A stretch of DNA of 64,000 nucleotides from an uncultured Acidimicrobiaceae bacterium (GCA_947258985.1 CAMYKI010000003.1:24222-88221); one strand, 5' to 3'; positions 17,577-54,613 are shown, numbered from the stretch's first letter. Program-made: numbers and translations. The notes: generated from the sequence alone by a model not told the origin.

Positions 17577-17599
17577 CCTTTTCGCCTGTCAGACAAGAG

Positions 17600-17625
17600 A
17601 AAACCCCGCCCGGAGGCGGGGTTTT
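17600..17625. terminator. bidirectional rho-independent terminator
   Basis: AAAACCCCGCC-cggag-GGCGGGGTTTT: a 7-bp GC stem flanked by an A-run and a T-run, lying between convergent genes. Confidence 0.6.
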
Positions 17626-17648
17626 CAGTTGGTTGATTCAGGCCGTTA

Positions 17649-18072: not shown

Positions 18073-20028
<1,956 letters not shown>

Positions 20029-20040
<12 letters not shown>

Positions 20041-20104
20041 TGCGATCACCTACGGGTGATGCGATCACCTACGGGTTATGCATTCGCCTACGGGTGATGA
20101 GATC
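20029..20104. repeat. four tandem 19-bp repeats, each with a 15-bp palindrome GGTGATGCGATCACC
   Basis: Units CTACGGGTGATGCGATCAC at 20029, 20048, 20067 (degenerate) and 20086. The array begins inside the last codons of the Lrp gene. Confidence 0.75.
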
Positions 20105-20105
20105 A

Positions 20106-20128
20106 CCTTCGAGTTCGATGAAATCGAA
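20106..20128. promoter_or_regulatory. perfect 23-bp palindrome CGAGTTCGAT-gaa-ATCGAACTCG (hairpin/operator candidate, possible lrp terminator)
   Basis: 10-bp arms are perfectly complementary. Sits immediately after the repeat array and about 110 bp upstream of the next gene. Confidence 0.55.
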
Positions 20129-20236
20129 CTCGGGCCGCCCAAGCGTCTCTCCGTTCTTGCGTGAACCACCCCGGGCATCCCGGCAGGGTCTACGCAAGAA
20201 GCGTGGGGGAGCGGCTTTGGTACGTAAACTCGCCGC

Positions 20237-21067
20237 ATGAGGATCTTGATCGTGGGGCCGGGGCGAGCCGGTATGTCATTGGGAATGGCACTTGTCACGG
20301 CCGGTCACAAAGTCGTCGGTGTTGTGGGGCGAACCACGGAGTCGGCCCAGCACGGTGCGGCACTGGTGGGGACCTCCGCATTCACTCTCGATGACCGACT
20401 GCCCGCTTCCGATCTGCTCGTCATTGCTACTCGTGACAGCCAGATCGGTTCGATTGCTACGACCCTTGCCGACAAGGAGCCTGTCGCCGGCGCCGCAGTG
20501 CACGTATCCGGCTTGACCCCGCTCGACGTCCTCGAGCCGCTGCGGTCCATCGACATCGCAGTCGGGTCGTTCCATCCGCTGCAGACGTTGCCTACCCCCG
20601 AGGCGGGAGCGGCCCGGCTGCGCGGCGCCTATGTCGCCGTCACCGCGGAGCCCCCCCTGCTGCACGTTCTCCAGCAGCTCGCCGAGGACATCGGGGCGAC
20701 GCCGTTTCCTCTAGACGACGACGCAAAACCCCTCTATCACGCTGCAGCAGCTGCTGCCGCAAACTTCCCGCTCGCCGCCTTGTCGATGGCCGAGGATCTG
20801 TTTGCGGAAGCGGGCGTTCCCTGGGAGGCGGCCCGTCCGCTCGTCGAGGCCGTGGTAGCGAACGCGTTCGACCTCGGTCCCCGTGCCGCCCTCACCGGAC
20901 CGGTGGCCCGGGGAGACACAGCTACGGTGGCGGCGCAACTCCGCGCCGTCGAGGTCGAGTACCCGGCATGGCGGGTGGGTTTTGCCCGATTTGTCGAAGT
21001 TCTCGCCGCCCTGACCGGCCGATCCGAGGAGTTCGAATCTGTACTCAATGCCGAGGACGATCGCTGA
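20237..21067 (+). CDS. Rossmann-like NAD(P)-binding protein, DUF2520 family (conserved upstream of panC in actinobacteria)
   Basis: MRILIVGPGRAGMSLGMAL GxGxxG motif. Ala-rich C-terminal domain. Stop overlaps the panC ATG. Confidence 0.55.
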   Translation: MRILIVGPGRAGMSLGMALVTAGHKVVGVVGRTTESAQHGAALVGTSAFTLDDRLPASDLLVIATRDSQIGSIATTLADKEPVAGAAVHVSGLTPLDVLEPLRSIDIAVGSFHPLQTLPTPEAGAARLRGAYVAVTAEPPLLHVLQQLAEDIGATPFPLDDDAKPLYHAAAAAAANFPLAALSMAEDLFAEAGVPWEAARPLVEAVVANAFDLGPRAALTGPVARGDTATVAAQLRAVEVEYPAWRVGFARFVEVLAALTGRSEEFESVLNAEDDR

Positions 21068-26369: not shown

Positions 26370-29300
26370 GTGATATCCACGATCCCAACACGCTTTGCCA
26401 TCGTTGCGCTCGCGGTGGTCCTTCTGACGGCGGCCTGCACATCTGGTACCGGCGACGAGACCACAACCTCGACATCGGCTGAACCGGCGACGACGACGGC
26501 AGCGCCGTCAACTACGACAACCAAGCCTCCGCCGGACCCGAGCGAAGGGCTGTATCTGATGCTGATGTGGCATCAGCATCAGCCGTTGTATCCGGAAAAC
26601 GAGGAGGGCTATGTGACCCGGCCATGGACCCGGGTGCACGCCACAAAGGACTACTACGACATGGCGGCCACGGTCGCCGAGTACCCCGACGTTCACGTCA
26701 CGTTCAACCTCACCCCGGTGTTGCTCGGGCAACTCGAAGCGCTGGCCAACGGCACGAAGGACGTCTATTGGGCTATGACCGAGATCCCGGCCGATGAACT
26801 CACCGAGGAGCAGCGGACCTTCATCATCGACCGCTTCTTCGACACCAACGCACGAATCGTCGCTCGCTTCCCCCGCTATCAGGAGTTGATTGAACGGCGC
26901 GACCGGCCGGAGAGTTTCACCACCGCCGATGTGCGCGATCTGCAGCTTCTGTTCAACCTTGCCTGGACCGACCCCTCGTTCCTCGTTTCCGAGCCGCTGG
27001 CGGGTCTCGTCGCCAAGGAGCGGGATTACACCGAAGAGGACAAGGCGTTGGTTCTCGCGGAGCATGAGCGCATCATTGCCGGGGTCATCCCGATTCACGC
27101 AGAGTTGTGGGACAGCGGTCAGATCGAGGTCGCCACCACGCCGCTCGCTCACCCCATCCTGCCGCTCGTTGCGGACACCCAACTCGCCCTCGTTGGTGAT
27201 CCCACCGGCGTTCAGCCGGAAAATCGGTTCCGACAGCCGCTCGATGCCGTCAATCAGGTTGCCTTCGGGCTCGGCGAAGCGGAGCGACTGTTGGGACGCC
27301 GCCCTGTGGGGATGTGGCCGGGTGAGGGCGCGGTCGCACAGGAAGTCATGGGCATGTTCAGTTCGAACGGTGTGGAGTGGGTTGCAACCGGCGAGGATGT
27401 TCTTGCGAAGACCCTCGACATCGGCAGTTTCAGCAGGGATGCCGACGATCTGGTCGTGGAGGCAGCGTCGCTGTACAAAATCCACGCCGCCGATCTGAGC
27501 CGACAGAGCGATGTCCCGATGTTCTTCCGCGACGTCGTGCTCTCGGACCGCATCGCTTTTGAGTATTCGGGCACCCCGGCCGCAGCCGCGGCGGACGACT
27601 TCATGGATCGGCTTGACGCTATCGACGCTGCTCTCGACGCAGCCGATGTTCCCGGGCCAAAGGTGGTGTCGGTGGTTCTCGACGGCGAGAACGCATGGGA
27701 GCACTACGAGAACGACGGGATCGACTTCCTCAACGCTCTGTACTCCCGTCTGTCCGATTCGGATGTTGTCACCACGGTGACGCCAAGTGAGCTGCTGGCC
27801 ATCTTCCCCGACGCCCCCGAGCCGCTTCCGCAGGTGTTCCCGGCGTCATGGTTTGAGCCCAACTTCGCCAATTGGATCGGCGAAGTGCAGGAGGCCCGAG
27901 CCTGGGACTACCTGTATCGGACTCGAGCCGATTTCGGAAGGGCGGAGCGCAGCGGCCAGGTCGACGCCGAAGCGTTGGCGGAGGCCTACGAGGCGATGCT
28001 ATTCGCCGAGGGATCCGATTGGTTCTGGTGGTATGGAGCTGACGAGGAATCCGGCGACGATGGCTACTTCGATAGCGCCTTCAGGGAGCTTCTCGGCCGG
28101 GTGTACGACGCCATCGGCGAGGACCGGCCCGATTTCACCCGGATACCGATTATTCCCCAGCCCTTCGTCGAACCGGACCGGGCTCTTACGGAACTGACCA
28201 CCATCGAGATCGACAACGATGTGGCTACCCCCGACTGGGAGACGGGAGGCCGCTACGAGCTTGCCGGGGGCGAGTTGGTTGGTTCGATCGACTACGCCTT
28301 CGACAAGAAGAACCTTTTCCTTCGTATTGATTTCGTGGAGGAAGTGCTCGGGCGGGACAATCTGTCGTTCGAGCTGTACCTGGGTTTCCCGGAGGCGGTT
28401 GATAGCTACGGTCTGACCAGCGCCGGTTCGGTGTTGGGCTTCGAGGCGACCCATCTGCTCAAGTGGAGCGGGCGCGATCCGGTCACGCTGGCGGGCCCGC
28501 TGGTGCACACCGCGCGAGGTTCCGAAGAGGACATAACGACCGAAGCGGGCTTCGACGGCGAGAGCATCGAACTCGCCTTGTCCATCGAAGGCCTCCCGGC
28601 GATTGAAGCCGGGGACCGCGTCGGCTTCCGTGTTGTCGAAACCAGTGGTGGGCCCGAAAGTCAGCTGCTTCCGATGGTCGGTCCCGGCTACCTGCAGGTG
28701 CCCGACATCTCAGATCTGGAGCCCCTGTTCGAGCTAGTCGACCCCGCAGGTGACGACTACGGACCCGGCGGGTACGTCTATCCACAGGACGTCCTCTTCG
28801 TTGAAGGTTCCTACGACCTCTCAGAGTTCTCCGTCGGCCTCTCGGGAGAGGACACGGTCGTCTTCACCTTCGATGTGGATGCGCCGATCGCCAACCCGTG
28901 GGGGAGTCCTGCCGGGTACTCGATTCAGACGTTCGACATGTACATCGACACAGATCCGGGTGCCGGTACCGGGGCGCGCTTGCTTCTTCCGGGGCGCAAC
29001 GCCGCGCTCGAGTCGGGTAACGGCTGGGAGTATGCGTTGACGCTCGAAGGCTGGGATCCGGCTTTGTACCTTGCGGATGCCGCCGGGAACACCGAAGAGA
29101 CCAAGCCGACTTTCAAGATGATCACGGATCCGGAAGGTTCCGTCACCGCTCGTCTGCCAATCGAGTTGTTTGGTGGGAGTGACCCGGCGACCTGGGGTTA
29201 TGCGGTCGTCCTGATGTCGCAGGAGGGCTTCCCGTCGTCTGGAGTTCGCCGGGTCCGCGACATCCTCCCCGAGGCCGAGCAGTGGCGCGGCGGCGGCGCG

Positions 29301-37474: not shown

Positions 37475-38206
37475 GTGACGAACAAGAAGACCACAGCGAA
37501 GACCGCCACGAAGAAGGCACCGGCCAAAAAGGCACCGGCCAAGAAGGCTGCGGCCAAAAAGGCTCCGGCCAAGAAGGCTGCGGCCAAAAAGACTGCGGCG
37601 GCGAAGAAGGCTCCGGCCAAGAAGGCTCCGGCCAAAAAGACTGCGGCGGCGAAGAAGGCTCCGGCAGCCAAGGCTGCACCCCGCCGAGCCAAAAAGGTGC
37701 AGAGCCCGTTTTCGGTTGGCGACTACGTCGTCTATCCGCATCACGGAGCCGCAACAATTATCAAGCGCGAGCGGATCGACTTCGACGGCGAGCGGCAAGA
37801 GTATTTCGTACTCGAGATTGCCACCGATCAGCTCACTGTGCGGGTCCCGGTCGGCAAGGCCGTTGATCTCGGCGTACGTCCGGTGATTTCGCAAAACAAG
37901 GCCCGGCAGGTGTTCCGAACGTTCAAAGAAGAGCCTCAGGAAGCCGGCAAGAACTGGAGCCGCTGGTACAAGCTCCTCACCGAGAAGATCAACAGTGGCG
38001 ACATCTTCCAGGTAGCCGAAGTGGTTCGCGACCTCACCTATGCGCAGCAGGTGAAGGGGATCTCACCGGCGCTGAAGAGGATGTTGGCCAAGGCTCGGCT
38101 AATCATCATCTCAGAACTCCGTTTCGCGCTTAACCTGGACGAAGAGGAAGCGGTGAAGAGACTCGATAGGGCTCTTCCCAAAGTCGAAATGCCGGAGGAA
38201 GTGTGA
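37475..38206 (+). CDS. carD: CarD/CdnL family RNA-polymerase-binding regulator with N-terminal Lys/Ala-rich histone-H1-like extension
   Basis: The C-terminal roughly 160 aa are a CarD_CdnL_TRCF domain ([27 protein letters not shown]...). The N-terminal about 80 aa are [10 protein letters not shown] repeats. GTG start. Confidence 0.8.
37500..37690. repeat. tandem 15/45-bp repeats encoding the (P/A)AKKA motif inside carD
   Basis: Repeated gccaagaaggctccggccaaaaag(g/a)ctgcggc units are visible in the DNA. Likely to vary in length. Confidence 0.6.
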
Positions 38207-53651: not shown

Positions 53652-54554
53652 GTGGCAACTGATTGGACGTTCAACGGGACCTGGCCGTACGAACCGAAAT
53701 GGTTTGACAGCAGCGATGGCCGGATGCACTACGTCGACGAGGGGCCCCGGGACGGCAAGGTCGTTGTGATGGCGCATGGCAACCCCACCTGGGGCTACCT
53801 ATATCGCAACTTCATCGGCGCTCTCGCCGATGCCGGGTATCGGGCGATTGTCCCCGATCACCTTGGCTTCGGTCGATCCGACAAGCCAGATCAGCCGGAG
53901 CTGTACACGATCCAGCGCCACAGCGAACGTTTCGAGGCATTGCTGGAGTCGTTGGATCTCCACGACGCAACCGTTGTGTGCCAGGACTGGGGTGGGCCGA
54001 TCAGCCTCTACTGGGCGACCCGGCATCCGGAACGAGTGCGGTCGCTGTTCATCCTCAATACCTTTGCGCATCGGCCGCCGACGGACGTGAAGCTTCCGCT
54101 GCCGATCAAGATGTTCCAGACCAAAGGCGTCGGCGAGACGCTGGTGAAGCGATTGCACCTTTTCGTGCGCGGTTTCCTCTTCAAGGCCGGGGTGGTCCAC
54201 AAGGATCGGTTCACCGCCGATGTCAAACGAGCGTATCTGGCACCCCATCCCACATACGCCAGCCGCACTCCAATTCTCGTGTTTCCCCGGGAGATCCCGG
54301 CGGGACCGGAGGGCGAAGTCTCCGATCTCAACGCTGAGATCGAAGCCGGTCTCGAGGAGCACTTCAGGAGCAAGCCGGTGAAGATCATGTGGGCCATGAA
54401 GGACATCGCCTTCACCCCCGAGATGGTCGATCAGCTCTGGTTGAAGACCTTCCCCGATGCCGAGGTGGAGCGTATCCCCGACGCCGGCCACTATCTCCAG
54501 GAGGACGCCCACGAGCGCATCGGACCCGCCCTGGTGAACTTCCTCGGTACCTAG
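53652..54554 (+). CDS. alpha/beta hydrolase, haloalkane-dehalogenase-like
   Basis: MHYVDEGPRDGKVVVMAHGNPTWGYLYR is the HGNP(T/S) motif. The nucleophile elbow has Asp (VVCQDWGG). The GTG at 53652 is preceded by GGGAGG. Confidence 0.7.
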   Translation: MATDWTFNGTWPYEPKWFDSSDGRMHYVDEGPRDGKVVVMAHGNPTWGYLYRNFIGALADAGYRAIVPDHLGFGRSDKPDQPELYTIQRHSERFEALLESLDLHDATVVCQDWGGPISLYWATRHPERVRSLFILNTFAHRPPTDVKLPLPIKMFQTKGVGETLVKRLHLFVRGFLFKAGVVHKDRFTADVKRAYLAPHPTYASRTPILVFPREIPAGPEGEVSDLNAEIEAGLEEHFRSKPVKIMWAMKDIAFTPEMVDQLWLKTFPDAEVERIPDAGHYLQEDAHERIGPALVNFLGT

Positions 54555-54566
54555 ACCCCTTTCGGT

Positions 54567-54608
54567 CTGGCGTACGTGAGCGCTGTATACAGCGCTCACG
54601 TACGCCAG
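54567..54608. terminator. perfect 42-bp palindrome (21-bp arms) between convergent genes
   Basis: CTGGCGTACGTGAGCGCTGTA|TACAGCGCTCACGTACGCCAG. The reverse complement of the first arm equals the second arm exactly. Confidence 0.6.
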
Positions 54609-54613
54609 ACGCG

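Follow-up and report, generated by a model that had tools for sequence, protein, structure and literature searches.

A tandem array of palindromes behind an lrp gene of an uncultured Acidimicrobiaceae bacterium is probably a REP/BIME-like cluster of a dispersed two-hairpin family

Why does a run of regularly spaced palindromes begin inside the last codons of a regulator gene? The question is raised by a stretch of 64,000 nucleotides from an uncultured Acidimicrobiaceae bacterium (GCA_947258985.1, CAMYKI010000003.1:24222-88221), here called the window, in which a gene for an Lrp/AsnC-family regulator (lrp) runs directly into a cluster of palindromes at 20031-20132. Coordinates of its features are positions in this 64-kb window, which has a G+C content of 62.8%. 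A first-pass annotation of the same DNA had proposed operator sites for the Lrp protein and, as alternatives, an element like the repetitive extragenic palindromic sequences (REPs), an element like the miniature inverted-repeat transposable elements (MITEs), or the boundary of an accessory block. The analysis reported here makes it likely that the cluster is comparable to REPs and to the bacterial interspersed mosaic elements (BIMEs) that are composed of them, and that it stems from a dispersed two-hairpin family of a clade of Acidimicrobiia. This reading builds on what was directly observed, namely the anatomy of the cluster, the dispersal of the family in related genomes, its extragenic placement at the 3' ends of genes, the compensatory changes in its stems and the different copy numbers at orthologous sites. 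The features on which the argument depends are the following.

19567-20040, plus strand: lrp, gene for the Lrp/AsnC-family regulator (Pfam); its last codons and stop codon form the start of repeat unit 1.
20031-20049, plus strand: repeat unit 1, CTACGGGTGATGCGATCAC, with hairpin A1 (GGTGAT-GCG-ATCACC) at 20036-20050; putative ancestral copy, consisting of the true gene end and hairpin A.
20050-20068, plus strand: repeat unit 2, identical to unit 1, with hairpin A2 at 20055-20069.
20069-20087, plus strand: repeat unit 3, CTACGGGTTATGCATTCGC, a decayed copy changed at 4 of 19 positions, without the fold.
20088-20106, plus strand: repeat unit 4, with loop GAG and hairpin A4 at 20093-20107; together with hairpin B it makes up one canonical A-B composite.
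20110-20132, plus strand: hairpin B, CGAGTTCGAT-GAA-ATCGAACTCG, the module best conserved within the dispersed family.
20154-20200, plus strand: palindromic module I1, TTCTTGCGT...ACGCAAGAA, with imperfect 22-nt arms.
20225-20230, plus strand: -10-like hexamer TAAACT, read from the sequence; putative promoter element.

Tandem Repeats Finder delimited the array at 20031-20108 (period 19, 4.1 copies, 84% matches, score 121), with the sequence of unit 1 as its consensus. The four 19-bp units, starting at 20031, 20050, 20069 and 20088, span 20031-20106 and abut head-to-tail without spacers. Three of them contain an intact 15-bp palindrome of the form GGTGAT-NNN-ATCACC (palindrome A), and the intact palindromes lie 4 nt apart. 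Unit 4 differs from units 1 and 2 in a single loop base (GCG to GAG), whereas unit 3 has lost the hairpin, as reflected in a predicted fold energy of -1.9 kcal/mol (z -0.05) against -7.6 and -7.4 kcal/mol for the intact units. Directly 3' of the array follows the 23-bp palindrome B with perfect 10-bp arms and a predicted fold of -14.4 kcal/mol (z -5.1). The stem of A thus measures 6-7 bp with a 3-nt loop, that of B 10-11 bp, and the A-B composite about 42 nt. As RNA, the segment 20028-20136 was predicted to fold with -51.4 kcal/mol (z -5.8), either as separate hairpins or as one nested superstructure. The 19-mer unit was matched three times in the window at up to 3 mismatches, against 0.01 matches expected. 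The motif GGTGATNNNATCACC was matched four times at up to 1 mismatch against 0.19 expected, three of these matches lying in the array and the fourth being a one-mismatch site within lysS. A chance arrangement of array and palindrome is excluded. The first-pass description of four 19-bp units, the third degenerate, followed by a perfect 23-bp palindrome was confirmed by the repeat finder, the palindrome positions and these counts; the 10-bp arms of palindrome B likewise stood, but its placement at 20106-20128 ended 4 nt short of the actual 20110-20132.

Does the repeat encode the end of the protein, as had been proposed, or did it copy the end of the gene? The product of lrp carries the Pfam domains HTH_AsnC-type (3.6e-17) and AsnC_trans_reg (5.6e-16), and the gene ends with GAC TAC GGG TGA, its stop codon (20038-20040) lying inside the 5' arm of the first palindrome A. 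Among 36 aligned Lrp homologues (74-92% identical overall), those near the window mostly end in ...RLPDY(G), several of them exactly in PDYG. The PDYG end and stop are also encoded at orthologous loci that contain no repeat at all, for example those labelled L121 and L122. Because these repeat-free orthologues share it, the ...RLPDYG C-terminus is the ancestral end of the protein and not a product of the repeat, and the proposal that the C-terminus is encoded by repeat sequence was not borne out. The array would therefore have arisen by duplication of the gene end together with hairpin A, the repeat unit having copied the gene end and not the reverse. Each 19-bp unit consists of C TAC GGG TGA, the true gene end, and the remainder of hairpin A. 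Single-copy relatives read GA[CTACGGGTGATGAAATCAC]CTTCGAGTTCGAT, and the 19 nt in brackets are present in four copies in the window; the single-copy orthologous arrangement GACTACGGGTGATGAAATCACC-TTCGAGTTCGAT is found in L003-L005 and L109.

The B core, GAGTTCGATNNNATCGAACTC, was scanned against one genome per species in 185,579 species. The scan returned 115 stretches, compared with a naive expectation of about 9 (18 specified bases in 596 Gb). About half of the 115 were singletons in unrelated phyla. The core, which can be written GAGTTCGAT-NNN-ATCGAACTC, was located at dozens of unrelated sites between genes in metagenome-assembled genomes (MAGs) of related Acidimicrobiia: 17 loci in the Acidimicrobiia MAG MO_197.B6, 15 in CBDUNF01, 9 in MO_207.B6 and 7 in MO_035.B13, as well as about 13 loci in other Acidimicrobiia-type MAGs, also with the composite. 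The lrp orthologues of these MAGs are 94-95.5% identical in protein and the surrounding DNA is about 80-84% identical to the window; given this DNA identity, the MAGs represent related species and not the organism of the window. The B core had no match in viral contigs, and a search of Rfam at gathering and permissive thresholds gave nothing meaningful at the array. The dispersed copies found in these related genomes support the REP-like alternative of the first-pass annotation.

Copies from the different loci share a common architecture. For 63 of the 79 B copies from these MAGs, one flank carries, no more than 26 nt away, a perfect palindrome of 5 bp or more with a 3-nt loop, and the A-B copies align in register as GG(C/G)(T/C)GAT-GMR-ATC..CC-TTG-B. 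From 46 distinct oriented copies in gapless register the consensus GGCTGAT-GAA-ATCAGC-TTG-GAGTTCGAT-GCA-ATCGAACTC-C was obtained. The family unit can accordingly be described as hairpin A of 15-17 bp, with a variable stem and the apex GAT-NNN-ATC, a linker of 2-4 nt, usually TTG or TTC, and hairpin B of 21-25 bp. A covariance model of the composite (R1) scored 20092-20133 at 65.7 bits (E 1.4e-15), the window sequence being itself among its 46 training rows.

The stems vary in a coordinated manner. The A stem occurs as GCTGAT, GGTGAT, GGCGAT, GCCGAT or GCTGCT, always with the matching 3' arm, and double (compensatory) changes were found at all six of its six pairs; as the A copies had been chosen for palindromy, the percentage of paired positions is biased, but the diversity of pair types is unbiased by that choice. 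The pair flanking B, which lay outside the selection criteria, was GC in 25 copies, CG in 8, UA in 4 and unpaired in 9, and L001 and L136 have B stems of a variant sequence (GAGTTGGAT/ATCCAACTC). The palindromy of the stems is maintained through compensatory change, as judged from the aligned copies.

Tandem amplification is frequent elsewhere in the family, with five copies at 63 or 48 bp in L076, four copies at 102 bp in L089, and likewise in L014, L031, L057, L064 and L106. A-A doublets are present in L020 and L076, and no A-only array in the 1.2 Mb sampled is longer than the four-unit array of the window. The mosaic of the family extends beyond A and B. A G-rich hairpin, GGGGGGAAAGTACCGCCGG...CCGG(G/T)GGTAGGGGGG, recurs 5' of GGCGAT-type A units in the MAGs, and a GTCAGTCCCC head recurs before GGCTGAT-type A units. 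Examples of such extra modules are found in L045 (7889-7925), L104 (about 2085-2143), L015 (1614-1650), L002 (4481-4560) and L106; in L002 they stand 3' of lrp without A or B.

The copies are strongly biased in their placement relative to genes. Only 5 of 62 sites fell within predicted coding sequence, compared with 72% of random positions, and 27 of 62 (44%) lay at most 10 nt from the 3' end of a predicted gene, compared with 3.3% of random positions. The orientation relative to the adjacent gene was mixed, with 9 copies co-oriented and 13 anti-oriented, and followed no rule. A second conserved A-B site was found 3' of a gene for a tiny basic protein (...RKRQKANRHKKK*) in L116, L086, L020 and L079. 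At this site (637-690 in L116), the open reading frame (ORF) ends in ...MSKHKYRKRQKANRHKKK, with the A-B composite directly 3' of it, in all four MAGs; its product may resemble the mycobacterial/actinobacterial ribosomal protein bS22. In L116, L086 and L079 a GC-rich hairpin is located beyond A-B, on the far side from the tiny gene, and in L116 and L086 this hairpin carries a T-run and constitutes a canonical terminator.

At the orthologous position, at least 11 assemblies of several species have the A-B composite on the lrp stop codon, with 1 to 4 copies of A. The arrangements, with lower case for degenerate modules, are as follows.

Window: A-A-a-A-B.
L003-L005: A-B, joined in L005 by a further, degenerate a-b.
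L109: A-B, with two different hairpins behind it.
L087: A (GCTGAT type)-B.
L123: a-B.
L069: A-b-A-B.
L066 and L001: longer mosaics.
L136: a covarying A''-B'' in two copies.
L128: degenerate remnant.
L131: the contig ends inside A.

A/B modules were absent 3' of lrp in L122 (98% Lrp identity), L121 (94%), L129 (92%), L124-L127 and L130. L129 has the synteny of the window (lrp, then the DUF2520 gene), and the block of four A units and B is a clean indel relative to it. The gene content at this position also varies. Two additional minus-strand genes lie between lrp and the DUF2520 gene in L001 (1362-3822) and L002 (4481-6904); one codes for a DUF5671 protein (about 570-600 aa), the other for a product of about 150 aa, and both are absent from the window, L129, L109 and L136. 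Other genes again stand 3' of lrp in L121, L122 and L124-L127. Judged by these comparisons, the junction downstream of lrp appears to be a rearrangement hot spot.

What occupies the rest of the spacer behind lrp? In the window, lrp is divergent from a gene for a beta-eliminating lyase of the tryptophanase/tyrosine phenol-lyase type (18073-19455, minus strand). At 196 bp 3' of lrp it is followed by a DUF2520/Rossmann gene (20237-21067), and then by panC, the gene for type III pantothenate kinase (coaX) and a longer ORF. Beyond hairpin B, the imperfect inverted repeat I1 (extended arms about 20146-20210) was predicted to fold with -27.8 kcal/mol (z -4.75). Its outer arms recur around different, internally paired interiors at the orthologous position in L129 and at unrelated positions in L051 (5944-5989), L064 (3180-3225) and L044 (about 2853), so that I1 is another dispersed module of palindromic type, one whose arms are conserved while its centre varies. 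The hexamer TAAACT ends 6 nt 5' of the ATG (20237) of the DUF2520-panC-coaX operon, and TAAACT, TAGACT or TACACT precedes the orthologous ATG by 6 nt in L129 and L136 and by 15-16 nt in L001 and L002. A sigma-70 consensus scan did not flag TAAACT. From its conserved position, the hexamer is probably part of a leaderless promoter of the DUF2520-panC operon and would thereby delimit the lrp 3' region on its downstream side. The spacer between lrp and the panC operon would then consist almost wholly of dispersed palindromic modules, followed by the putative promoter.

Together, these comparisons suggest how the cluster may have formed. An ancestor of several species would have carried one A-B composite on the lrp stop codon, the TGA being part of A's 5' arm. 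Along the lineage that led to the window, a 19-bp segment comprising the last 7 coding nucleotides, the stop codon and the remainder of A would have been duplicated in tandem up to four copies. A likely route is replication slippage at the hairpin via the 2-nt CT that is common to the start of the unit (CTACGG) and the sequence after A (CTTCGAG). One unit would have decayed after the duplication. Transcribed as the 3' untranslated region (UTR) of lrp, the block would form three small hairpins and a strong one, followed by the I1 hairpin, and this fold may shield the 3' end of the lrp mRNA from exonucleases, reduce read-through into the separately promoted DUF2520-panC-coaX operon, or both. By analogy with REPs in enterobacteria, the block probably acts as a 3'-UTR structure, and the additional A copies are probably neutral.

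Several observations weigh against the REP/BIME-like assignment. Other family copies were not found in the 64-kb window, either by pattern searches or with R1, which with filters off gave nothing else below E ~0.08. Dispersal is therefore established in the relatives, the genome of the window being itself represented by 64 kb. In 333 kb of lrp-anchored metagenome contigs, R1 matched solely at the lrp 3' end. The lrp site looks unusually persistent, and a local function might be the reason. The placement figures rely on gene calls by a crude GC-frame heuristic, which overlooked some genes and made at least one false call in the window. Hairpin A alone, with 15 bp, is below the usual size of a REP. 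No column pattern corresponding to a GTAG or CGTC tag was present in 46-63 oriented copies; in these, A was preceded by GG and B was followed by CA or GG, with TTG or TTC as the linker. Finally, a regular-expression search of the window and 200 loci (1.22 Mb) for an ORF with the HUH...Y[VI]xxNP motifs of REP-associated tyrosine transposases (RAYTs), as tabulated in PMC6006769, found none, a crude test on a small fraction of the MAGs and as such uninformative, not a true negative. Copy number itself differs between genomes: many relatives hold few copies, and the family is expanded in a few. The CTAC before each A (GTAG after it on the other strand) was considered as a REP tag and rejected, as it is on the wrong side compared with canonical 5'-GTAG REPs, comes from the conserved Asp-Tyr codon pair of lrp and is missing from the remaining copies of the family.

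The strongest competitor, which we nevertheless regard as rather unlikely, is a locus-specific cis element: the hairpins would be a terminator of lrp lacking a U-tract, or an element of mRNA stability or translation termination under selection, and the resemblance of copies elsewhere would reflect a common terminator design. The composite is indeed kept on the lrp stop codon across species that are about 80% identical in DNA, its stems at lrp are compensatory (GGTGAT/ATCACC, GCTGAT/ATCAGC, GCTCAT/ATGAGC), the predicted structure is strong, and lrp is the sole site in the 333 kb of anchored contigs. In addition, Escherichia coli REPs located within about 15 nt of a stop codon reportedly lower expression via ribosome stalling, an effect attributed to Liang, Rudd and Deutscher in 2015. 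However, no hairpin of the cluster is followed by a T-run and a terminator scan of 20000-20240 was empty; B is followed by GGGCCGCC, and an intrinsic terminator was rejected on these grounds. In L116 and L086 the canonical terminator comes after A-B, so that at these loci termination is not the task of A-B itself. Both orientations relative to genes occur, several close relatives manage without the element, and independent terminators would not be expected to share near-identical 21-nt B cores across many unrelated loci. This explanation overlaps with the function proposed above for a REP/BIME-like cluster and does not exclude such a cluster.

The readings that tie the repeats to the Lrp protein or to recombination fare worse. 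An operator array, in which the dyads serve as sites for the adjacent Lrp/AsnC protein in autoregulation or in control of DUF2520-panC, draws on the dyad symmetry and regular spacing beside an lrp gene, on the location of the array about 95-195 bp upstream of the putative -10 element of the panC operon, and on the recurrence of A-B at lrp in several species. Yet the modules adjoin dozens of unrelated genes, the closest Lrp orthologues (L122, L121 and L129) lack them, and none is present in the divergent lrp-lyase promoter, where an autoregulatory site would be expected. In L001 and L002 the promoter of the panC operon lies two genes away from lrp and is without A or B. Known Lrp sites, i.e., those of the feast/famine regulatory proteins (FFRPs), have A/T-rich centres, unlike GAT-GCG-ATC, and most orthologous sites have a single A and no array. 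With its 3' location in addition, the multi-site operator of the first-pass annotation found no support and is, in our view, the least probable of the explanations weighed here. Only slightly better placed, and still very improbable, is a recombination or integration scar, that is, att-like or attC-like sites or a deletion footprint at the edge of a variable block. The varying gene content after lrp among close relatives (DUF5671 and the small gene in L001 and L002), the clean indel against syntenic L129 and the short contigs that end within the repeats (L003, L131) speak for it. On the other hand, downstream variability is found with and without the modules alike, clusters elsewhere have 48-102-bp spacing with no genes between copies, unlike cassette arrays, the consensus is devoid of attC-type R/L boxes, and neither an integrase or transposase at the array nor a match in viral contigs was noted. 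Of the suggestion that the array marks an accessory-block boundary, the variable gene content after lrp was upheld and its association with the repeats was not.

Other classes were examined and discarded. The copies are simple hairpins with a 3-nt loop, and their alignments revealed neither terminal inverted repeats nor target duplications, leaving the MITE-like alternative unsupported. A CRISPR array was rejected, the units abutting at a 19-bp period without unique spacers, and attC sites were rejected, their defining features failing. A DNA-uptake sequence is disfavoured because the A stems vary freely.

The window contains further palindromes and repeats. A perfect 46-bp palindrome at 54565-54610, GTCTGGCGTACGTGAGCGCTG-TATA-CAGCGCTCACGTACGCCAGAC, with 21-bp arms and a TATA loop, lies between convergent ORFs (ending at 54554 on the plus strand and 54614 on the minus strand); it has no T-run and is unlike A or B. 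At 17599-17626, between a gene for a cyclic nucleotide monophosphate (cNMP)-binding-domain protein (plus strand) and an HU-like gene (minus strand), a perfect hairpin with a 12-bp stem, GAAAACCCCGCC-CGGA-GGCGGGGTTTTC, is flanked by A and T runs on both sides and resembles a bidirectional intrinsic terminator; canonical terminators therefore exist in this genome. A repeat at 37509-37665 (periods 15, 30 and 48 bp; as many as 9.7 copies of the consensus AAGAAGGCTCCGGCCAAG in Tandem Repeats Finder) would, if coding, specify a Lys/Ala/Pro-rich repetitive stretch. The perfect 12-bp-stem palindrome CTGATGCTGATG-TGG-CATCAGCATCAG at 26556-26582 was tried as a relative of A and dismissed as a coding coincidence: it lies within a 1027-aa ORF and encodes ...LMLMWHQHQP...

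As the evidence stands, the element is ordinary in kind: the kind is well known, and the family itself appears to be undescribed. The literature search turned up no paper joining REPs with Acidimicrobiia, or REPs or RAYTs with Actinobacteria, and a search for the term showed that Actinobacteria are not mentioned in the texts of PMC3733652 or PMC6006769. The present analysis removes a tempting operator-array reading beside lrp and documents a small mosaic palindromic family in the Acidimicrobiia, a mostly uncultured actinobacterial class of marine and sediment habitats. Such repeats break short-read assemblies, several contigs ending within them, and invite confusion with operators or CRISPR-like arrays; they also mark 3' UTRs and may serve in strain typing. 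A more far-reaching idea, which we consider doubtful and put forward as speculation, is that of a tag-less REP-like system of Acidimicrobiia in which the GAT-NNN-ATC apex is read by a non-RAYT factor, either a single-stranded-DNA nuclease or transposase or an RNA-binding or RNA-processing protein. The lrp copy would then be retained across species, tuning translation termination or mRNA decay of the regulator, with the length of the array (1 to 4 A hairpins) as a heritable expression dial. If a mobilising enzyme or a role at the RNA level were found, REP biology would be extended beyond the GTAG/RAYT paradigm.

How does the cluster compare with known systems? With Lrp/AsnC (FFRP) operators it shares dyad-symmetric 15-bp sites that are regularly spaced beside an lrp-family gene; it differs in that it lies 3' of the gene and not in a promoter, is not specific to lrp, has a G/C-rich centre, is absent at the closest orthologous loci and usually occurs there as a single copy. 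Like intrinsic terminators, it forms stable stem-loops just after a stop codon, between co-directional units, but it has no U-tract, its stems are repeated across genomes, and a canonical terminator follows it elsewhere. Mycobacterial intergenic repeats of the MIRU (mycobacterial interspersed repetitive unit) type are variable-number tandem repeat (VNTR) loci that arise from slipped-strand mispairing. The array resembles them in its short head-to-tail units, its intergenic 3' position, its variable copy number at orthologous loci (1, 2 or 4 A units) and its identical neighbouring copies beside a decayed one; in contrast to them, its unit is a module of a dispersed palindromic family and, with 19 bp, shorter than MIRUs.

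REPs are palindromes of 20-40 bp that lie mostly 3' of ORFs, in the gaps between genes with unidirectional or convergent orientation (PMC3733652). They sometimes supply the stop codon, and clusters of them undergo tandem reiteration that takes in the flanking DNA (Di Nocera et al. 2013, PMC3733652). Compared with the GTAG- and CGTC-tagged REP superfamilies (PMC3733652), the A-B family has no conserved unpaired tag at the foot of the hairpin, and the regular-expression search of 1.22 Mb found no cognate RAYT/TnpAREP gene. Moreover, its hairpin A measures only 15-17 bp, its hosts are Acidimicrobiia (Actinomycetota), and it consists of two different hairpins in succession sharing the GAT-NNN-ATC apex, whereas a REPIN is an inverted doublet. 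In most other respects the A-B family agrees with the mosaics of palindromic units in enterobacteria and the REPs and REPINs of Pseudomonas. Both consist of short palindromes in many dispersed extragenic copies, prefer the 3' side of ORFs and occasionally overlap or supply a stop codon. Both comprise stem variants within one family, are assembled into mosaics and are reiterated in tandem carrying flanking DNA, and both occur in either orientation and persist at orthologous sites across species.

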